Origin: a virus
Taxonomy: Duplodnaviria > Heunggongvirae > Uroviricota > Caudoviricetes
Virus record (IMG/VR): IMGVR_UViG_3300045988_033906
Span: 1 to 31,280 of that record
Direction: 5' to 3' (one strand)
DNA: 31,280 nt
The position numbers and the translations under genes were made by a program. Below are positions 26,843-26,916 of the stretch, one piece after another. The notes below the pieces were generated by a model. That model saw only the letters and a list, made by a program, of their open reading frames with translations, ran no database searches and was not told the DNA's origin. How positions within the stretch are numbered: position 1 is the first letter of the stretch; every line of letters starts with the position of its first letter.

Positions 26843-26851
26843 AACCACCTT

Positions 26852-26881
26852 GGTAATAGTTACCGTTGTGGTAATAGTACC
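26852..26881. promoter_or_regulatory. tandem palindromic repeat GGTAATAGTTACC / GGTAATAGTACC in terminase upstream spacer (candidate late-promoter or regulator site)
   Basis: Two near-identical 12-13-bp palindromes separated by GTTGT, located between a minus-strand terminator hairpin and the TerS RBS. Confidence 0.3.
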
Positions 26882-26884
26882 ATG

Positions 26885-26911
26885 CAAAATAAAGCCGCCA
26901 TAGTTGGCGGC
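26885..26911 (-). terminator. rho-independent terminator separating early-region genes from terminase operon
   Basis: GCCGCCA (26894-26900) / TGGCGGC (26905-26911), loop TAGT; on the minus strand followed by TTTATTTTG. Confidence 0.5.
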
Positions 26912-26916
26912 AGTAT

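Follow-up and report, generated by a model that had tools for sequence, protein, structure and literature searches.

A terminator, a candidate promoter and candidate repressor operators ahead of the terminase genes of an epsilon15-like prophage of Escherichia coli

The window, i.e., the whole stretch of 31,280 nucleotides that was analysed (IMG/VR record IMGVR_UViG_3300045988_033906), is a phiV10/TL-2011b/epsilon15-like (Uetakevirus) prophage of Escherichia coli with its genes on the minus strand. The prophage adjoins guaA/yfgI; the host genes yfgH and yfgI (520-1593, plus strand) form its left edge, and the opposite edge in relatives is the 3' end of guaA. Of 5426 complete E. coli genomes, 503 contain the stretch 26600-27200 by megablast, as do phiV10-type phages. 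According to the annotation of near-identical records, the gene order is int, early-left genes, rep, a cro-like gene, replication genes and small "nin" genes, followed by a zinc-finger gene, a 77-aa ORF, the spacer considered here, terS and terL, then by an opposite-strand moron with a tRNA-Arg, and finally by the portal, head, tail, tailspike and lysis genes. The interval from the early genes to the terminase contains, by the same gene order, neither a Q-type gene nor a lysis cassette. A tRNA-Arg(TCT) (24070-24146, plus strand), which was the sole Rfam match at the gathering threshold, and a Gp49-family gene (24345-24683, plus strand) separate, on the opposite strand, terL from the portal operon, so that terS-terL forms a two-gene unit of its own. 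The following features were located at the boundary ahead of terS.

27147-27488, minus strand: zinc-finger gene (113 aa, phrog_536), its TGA stop overlapped by GTGACATGTCAC
27139-27150, no strand: GTGACATGTCAC, a perfect 12-bp palindrome on the stop of the zinc-finger gene
26917-27150, minus strand: 77-aa ORF (phrog_1541), TGA stop at 26917-26919; it probably starts at the ATG that follows AAGGTG near 27126
26894-26911, minus strand: stem-loop GCCGCCA-ACTA-TGGCGGC of an intrinsic terminator (terminator scan and fold), beginning 5 nt past the TGA of the 77-aa ORF
26886-26893, minus strand: T-tract TTTATTTT of the terminator (sequence and terminator scan), immediately 3' of the stem
26874-26882, minus strand: candidate extended -10 element of P_terS, TGgTACTAT, whose last T is the first T of O1; no usable -35
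26860-26874, no strand: O1, TTACC-ACAAC-GGTAA, candidate operator with 0 mismatches to the family palindrome; the ortholog in epsilon15 is annotated "protein_bind: repressor"
26842-26856, no strand: O2, TTACC-AAGGT-GGTTA, candidate operator with 1 mismatch, 18 bp from O1, holding the terS Shine-Dalgarno sequence
26845-26850, minus strand: terS Shine-Dalgarno sequence AGGTGG, inside O2; GGTG is invariant among leaders
26246-26839, minus strand: terS, 197 aa, Terminase_2 (PF03592, E = 1e-29), with the conserved second ATG as start

On the minus strand the spacer thus reads TGA-atact-[GCCGCCAACTATGGCGGC]-TTTATTTT-gca-TGgTACTAT-TACC-ACAAC-GGTAA-cta-TTACC-AAGGT-GGTTA-tg-ATG. The conserved start of terS is the ATG at 26839-26837. 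The first ATG of the ATGATG is lost in some relatives (L064, L080), and O1 and O2 of BUCT554 are separated by two additional nucleotides; the spacer is therefore non-coding, and TerS starts at 26839. A 224-aa TerS from the TTG at 26920, as annotated by RefSeq/PGAP in E. coli, would run through the terminator and both operators; it was rejected as an annotation artefact because of the 2-nt indel of BUCT554, because starts further upstream are not conserved and because a strong Shine-Dalgarno sequence precedes the conserved ATG, and is flagged here as an error in RefSeq E. coli genomes. The ribosome-binding site of TerS had been predicted to follow the repeats, and its presence was confirmed, with AGGTGG situated inside the second palindrome. 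Besides the window, roughly one in five of the matching E. coli genomes has the 77-aa ORF; phiV10/TL-2011b have lost all of it but the last ~20 nt, and other family members have an unrelated 330-nt ORF in its place and lack the terminator.

The terminator consists of a stem of 7 pairs (6 of them G-C), a 4-nt loop and an 8-nt T-tract, with a predicted folding energy of -16.2 kcal/mol (z = -4.1), and in its sequence conforms to an intrinsic terminator, i.e., a G+C-rich stem-loop followed by a U-tract. Conservation was assessed with 82 related loci in which the terminator-to-ATGCC block is always 77 nt long and which represent 17 distinct versions; the stem is invariant in all of them. The record of epsilon15 labels the orthologous hairpin a rho-independent terminator. 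The minus-strand terminator hairpin of the original prediction (26894-26911) was therefore confirmed by scan, fold, annotation of epsilon15 and conservation, and these data support the view that it closes the early-right/nin operon just ahead of terS. It is absent at terS of BUCT554, Kp4865-1 and L101, where the upstream ORF continues straight into the operators.

O1 and O2 are 15-bp palindromes on the pattern TTACC-N5-GGTAA; a repeat search showed them as a direct repeat of TGGTAATAGT, present twice at a spacing of 18 bp. Tandem palindromes had been proposed for this spacer in the form of GGTACTATTACC and GGTAACTATTACC. Both strings are present (26870-26881 and 26852-26864, respectively), but they are not the conserved units, which are the TTACC-N5-GGTAA palindromes. 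GGTAACTATTACC joins halves of two sites, the right one of O1 and the left one of O2, and the part of the first string that lies beyond O1 is a conserved, candidate extended -10 element (TGnTAYTAT) abutting O1; the presumed left arm of that string, GGTAC, is variable in relatives (GTTAC, GATAC, GGTAT).

With at most one mismatch, TTACC-N5-GGTAA occurs at 7 sites in the window, compared with 0.64 expected, and 0 of 100 shuffled sequences reached 7. Five of the copies are perfect, which makes it the top palindrome of the window by de novo count. An unbiased count of 5-N-5 palindromes likewise placed it first not only in the window but in epsilon15 (11 copies), BUCT554 (8), Kp4865-1 (10) and BUCT711 (9); a Serratia prophage and a second E. 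coli lineage, each with 7 copies within 20 kb, gave the same ranking. All 7 sites of the window are intergenic and lie 5' of minus-strand units, and the palindrome stands ahead of every rightward transcription unit. The sites (at most one mismatch, first position given) are:

3715: ahead of the lysis genes
7123: ahead of the tailspike gene
23733: ahead of the portal gene
26842 and 26860: ahead of terS (O2 and O1)
30316 and 30378: ahead of DUF1064/nin

Over the 82 loci, all 10 half-site columns of O1 are invariant, while 4 of the 5 spacer columns vary; fixed half-sites around a free spacer are the signature of a DNA site that is bound by a dimer. The half-sites of O2 are fixed in the E. coli clade, where position 2 of its N5 takes all four bases, and the ribosome-binding site accounts for part of this conservation. 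The Salmonella phages have the mismatch of O2 in the opposite half-site; in the Klebsiella phages and in SPC32H, O2 is degenerate, hence the tandem layout is not universal, and the Serratia prophage has a single operator at terS.

The rep gene lies just outside the end of the window, and the arrangement of sites around it was therefore read in relatives. In the near-identical prophage L001, the palindrome occurs at 17085 and 17133 (OR) and at 17845 and 17907 (OL), flanking rep (17203-17787); in SPC32H it occurs three times after rep (OL) and two to three times before it (OR). The same clustering around the repressor gene was seen in epsilon15, BUCT554, the Klebsiella phages, Serratia L099 and L101, and the seven annotated repressor sites of epsilon15 (NC_004775) share ATTACC-N5-GGTAAT. 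At OR, epsilon15, SPC32H and the Klebsiella phages have tandem operators with a spacing of 17 bp; the pair at terS, with 18 bp, is accordingly a native arrangement. The repressor of L001 matches SPC32H Rep (PDB 5D50) with E = 4e-42 in a full-length, clearly diverged alignment. The window itself encodes an 85-aa homolog of Ant (7214-7471, plus strand), which matches chain E of 5D50, the SPC32H antirepressor, with E = 1.3e-47, and a perfect LexA box, TACTGTATAAATATACAGT, is located ahead of this gene at 7175-7193. Since an Ant homolog is encoded behind a LexA box, the window carries an SPC32H-type switch. The ORF call of ant from 7091 is too long, its real start being the ATG at 7214, and the tailspike operator (7123-7137) shares the divergent intergenic region with the LexA box and ant.

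The repeats ahead of terS have, in short, the palindrome of OL and OR, which in relatives cluster around the repressor gene, and the half-site conservation of a Uetakevirus (epsilon15/SPC32H-type) operator. We consider it very probable that they are operators of the protein that binds OL and OR, and we infer that this protein at O1 and O2 is Rep. Binding of Rep to palindromic sites as a tetramer has been reported in a secondary account (PMC9638917). In phage ZX5, overexpression of Rep abolished the late mRNAs for holin and endolysin, and an identity of 42% was given in the same paper for the repressors of the phiV10 type and of epsilon15 (PMC9782041). All relatives found, down to a Rep identity of 54% (Serratia), have the same half-sites, TTACC/GGTAA. 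Text searches of the literature for the motif or for Uetakevirus operators gave nothing relevant, and no binding or transcript data for the terS spacer were found in the literature searched, a set which did not comprise Kropinski 2007, Kim and Ryu 2013 and Kim 2016.

The nin promoter (30316-30392) and PL (L001, 17845-17921) each lie within a pair of operators whose starts are 62 bp apart, one operator being upstream of the -35 and the other on the -10/+1 region. Pairs with this spacing are also found in epsilon15, SPC32H, BUCT554, the Klebsiella phages and L101, which suggests looping by one repressor tetramer.

Between the T-tract and O1 lies the element that could restart transcription. TG, TA and TAT of the candidate P_terS are invariant in 19 distinct leaders, and variation is confined to the "n" and to position 3 of the hexamer. 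The element corresponds to the pattern of a sigma-70 extended -10, with TG one base upstream and A2 and T6 in the hexamer. In the form TGnTAnnAT it is conserved in 7 lineages, including the terminator-less BUCT554, Kp4865-1 and L101; the Serratia prophage, with 54% identity in Rep and 66% in TerS, has the terminator, TGtTATGAT, the single operator with the Shine-Dalgarno sequence, and ATG. The junction of -10 and operator is shared by PL, the canonical early-left promoter, in five genomes (TTGACA-17-AATTAT|TACC and variants) and by P_nin (TTGATT-17-TTTAAT|TACC). Among the operator-abutting hexamers that were listed, the TG extension is found at the terS sites and at one other only. The A and T at the 3' end of the P_terS hexamer belong also to the extended consensus of the operator, ATTACC. 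A sigma-70 consensus scan of the minus strand of the spacer reported no promoter and missed P_terS, which has 4 of 6 hexamer matches and no -35; manual pairings with TTGCAT as -35 were rejected, as a spacer of 20 bp would be needed. P_terS is probably a weak promoter at best. From its position, the transcript would start about 7 nt downstream, at about 26867, and Rep would act by occluding a promoter rather than as a pure roadblock.

The reading that we prefer combines these elements as a stop, a restart and a lock; the probability of the whole module is put at about 0.6. The terminator (26894-26911) would end the early-right/nin transcript, and the weak extended -10 right after the T-tract would start the transcript of terS-terL. 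In the lysogen, an SPC32H-type Rep on O1 and O2 would block initiation together with any read-through, and the terminase would be kept off. O1 would cover about -7 to +8 of P_terS, with the predicted start and the final base of the -10 inside it, and O2 would lie over the ribosome-binding site. Upon SOS induction, Rep would be displaced from the DNA by the LexA-controlled Ant (7214-7471), whereupon the promoter would fire. The spacer is thus best read as an off-switch for lysogeny, and not as an on-switch of late genes, a site of antitermination or a packaging signal.

The main rival is a mechanism that shares the core claim of Rep on O1 and O2 and dispenses with a promoter in the spacer: nin transcripts reading through past the terminator would make terS-terL, and Rep would block the elongating polymerase in the lysogen, in the manner of a "stoperator". 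The negative result of the sigma-70 scan of the minus strand would be expected from such an arrangement, as would the genomes without a terminator (BUCT554, Kp4865-1, L101), in which the upstream ORF runs into the operators, and the dispersal of operators before many units resembles that of the stoperators of mycobacteriophage L5. However, TGnTAnnAT abuts O1 exactly in all lineages and varies only where an extended -10 is free to vary; the terminator, with the stem and T-tract given above, is strong and would leave little read-through; and the sites are symmetric, whereas L5 stoperators depend on orientation. We regard a pure roadblock as rather unlikely, though still the most serious competitor of the stop, restart and lock.

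Control at the level of RNA was also considered. The palindromes of the leader could pair with each other (ACCAC/GUGGU, GGUAA/UUACC), hide the ribosome-binding site of terS and damp its translation. The predicted fold of 26835-26925 is indeed stable (-32.4 kcal/mol, z = -4.95), with the Shine-Dalgarno sequence paired, and 92.6% of the pair cells across the 19 leaders are standard pairs. Yet there are zero compensatory changes, and the covariation score equals that of every shuffle; the pairing is an automatic by-product of two tandem DNA palindromes. Moreover, the palindrome occurs singly and without a partner at many sites, and the Serratia prophage has one operator only. This explanation is therefore considered improbable.

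According to the original prediction, the repeats might bind a late activator or antiterminator, for example the zinc-finger protein encoded upstream, and thereby switch on the late operon. The 113-aa protein (phrog_536, "transcriptional regulator") is indeed encoded just upstream of terS or of late genes in Uetakeviruses, and its fold matches, which are weak and of the ribbon-helix-helix type only, suggest that it probably binds DNA. Against this role at O1 and O2, the early operators on either side of rep, OL and OR, have the same palindrome. The idea of a terminase-linked activator was further weakened by ZF40 and a Yersinia P2-like phage, where the homologous gene is away from the terminase; a small transcriptional regulator of the latter phage is encoded separately, at the far end of the genome. 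An activator site of the P2 Ogr/Delta type, TGT-N12-ACA, was not seen on direct reading of the 55-nt spacer, which contains no TGT. The sequence TCATATGTGGTT, which is common to the portal, tailspike and lysis promoters, where it forms part of a promoter of the TTCATA-17-TAGAAT type about 28-45 nt downstream of the operator, gave no credible match when aligned to the terS spacer.

Finally, the zinc-finger gene travels with a palindrome of its own. GTGACATGTCAC occurs three times in the window (0.00 expected): on the stop of this gene, after terL (24688-24699), and between the last structural gene and a terminator that follows closely (7495-7506). The same three places are occupied in epsilon15 and SPC32H, and at least two of them in BUCT554, Kp4865-1 and BUCT711. 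In the form GTGAC-NN-GTCAC, with variable NN, it was found on or directly after the stop of the zinc-finger homolog in the Serratia prophage (two copies), ZF40, the Yersinia P2-like phage, phiKO2 and PhiR46_1, while at the stops of the homologs of Vibrio K303 and Aeromonas 59.1 no such site was present. Because of this co-occurrence at its own stop codon, the zinc-finger protein is not the best candidate for O1 and O2, and GTGAC-NN-GTCAC would be the better candidate for its binding site. Overall, the zinc-finger gene has this palindrome across its stop in no fewer than six lineages of enterobacterial phages; Uetakeviruses have further copies beside terminators, at the 3' ends of the terminase operon and the structural operon.

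In gene content and order, the locus does not qualify as a site of Q-type antitermination. That no Q-like gene is recognizable upstream, as had been noted before, is consistent with our search, in which eight ORFs (terS and seven upstream) were compared with Pfam without a match to an antiterminator family. The order of a Q site, promoter, loading site and terminator, was not found here either, since the repeats and the candidate promoter are both 3' of the terminator. What holds of the proposed boundary for late activation, antitermination or packaging is that it is a regulatory boundary, where a terminator closes early-right/nin; its interpretation was not supported, given that the repeats are the palindrome of OL and OR, with 7-11 copies per genome, that the terminator is upstream of them, and that the sequence shared by the other late promoters is absent. 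A late activator or antiterminator acting at these repeats is judged slightly less probable still than RNA control.

Least probable of all is a pac element, in which the repeats would be recognition boxes of the small terminase at the start of terS: TerS is of the Terminase_2 family, the record of epsilon15 gives by HHpred a similarity of TerS to the small terminase of Bacillus phage SF6 and of TerL to gp2 of Shigella phage Sf6, the pacL site of SPP1 lies upstream of SPP1 terS and carries repeats, and between epsilon15 and Klebsiella ST512-KPC3phi13.3 the spacer looks, by eye, better conserved than the start of terS, but O2 is degenerate in some members, and a motif that is present 7 times in the window and 8-11 times per complete genome, OL and OR included, lacks the uniqueness of a pacL-type site and cannot be a unique pac signal.

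A second motif, (T/C)CATATGTGGTT, was noticed as shared among several units (all on the minus strand):

7083-7092: 28-45 nt downstream of the tailspike operator
23681-23690: 28-45 nt downstream of the portal operator
3672-3681: 28-45 nt downstream of the lysis operator
30336-30345: inside the nin promoter
7462-7471: a further copy

When the GGTAA-TAGAAT that follows is included, a weak promoter of the form TTCATA-17-TAGAAT can be read. The motif is retained by epsilon15, BUCT554 and the Klebsiella phages; the terS spacer lacks it.

Returning to the stop, restart and lock, the module suggests why a terminase operon can follow the early genes without a gate of the Q type, as a terminator and a repressor-locked promoter would silence the DNA-cutting enzyme. 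A wider proposal is tentative: Rep may perhaps gate all units directly (early-left, early-right, nin, terminase, portal/head, tailspike and lysis) by way of identical operators throughout the genome, and phrog_536 (ribbon-helix-helix plus zinc-ribbon) could form, with GTGAC-NN-GTCAC, a second, undescribed layer, possibly the missing regulator of late expression or of termination. The operator map and the zinc-finger-linked palindrome provide testable sites for studies of the SPC32H/epsilon15 switch and for the engineering of phiV10-type reporter phages.

The operator-terminator feature at terS is already known in kind, since its ortholog is annotated in epsilon15 (NC_004775; protein_bind 12-27, stem_loop 39646-39672) at the same position, with the same terminator stem and TTACC-N5-GGTAA, and likewise with a second, one-mismatch copy 18 bp downstream. 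The annotation is a prediction; it comprises the first copy alone and no promoter. Differences from epsilon15 are the additional 77-aa ORF of the window, which separates the zinc-finger gene from the terminator, an N5 of ACAAC instead of AAAAC in O1, and the position of the O2 mismatch, which is in the other half-site. With SPC32H the prophage has in common the Ant homolog behind a LexA box and, in the sister L001, the Rep homolog; the genome of SPC32H carries the palindrome at OL, OR and terS. The published work on the SPC32H Rep/Ant switch (Kim and Ryu 2013; Kim et al. 2016) reportedly concerns the immunity region.

OR and OL of lambda are similar in being palindromic, with conserved half-sites and free spacers, and in their position on the -10/+1 region, as seen here at PL (TTGACA-17-AATTAT|TACC). 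The lambda repressor, however, controls PL, PR and PRM only, and late genes need Q, whereas here an operator also precedes terminase, portal, tailspike, lysis and nin genes. The lambda Q system (pR'-qut-tR') resembles the locus in that an intrinsic terminator stands before the late genes at the early/late boundary; it differs in that no Q homolog was found here (eight ORFs, Pfam), the terminator precedes the candidate promoter, and a sigma-dependent pause element is lacking. The stoperators of L5 gp71 and the operators of P1 C1 are likewise numerous sites in short intergenic gaps that silence several units directly. Dispersed intergenic sites in early and late regions are present in the prophage as well; but the sites of L5 and P1 are asymmetric, and those of L5 are orientation-dependent blocks to elongation, whereas the sites described here are symmetric, several being perfect palindromes, and are mostly on or near promoter-like sequence. 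By analogy, the feature would appear to act like a lambda-type operator on a promoter, within a dispersed network that recalls those of P1 C1 or L5.
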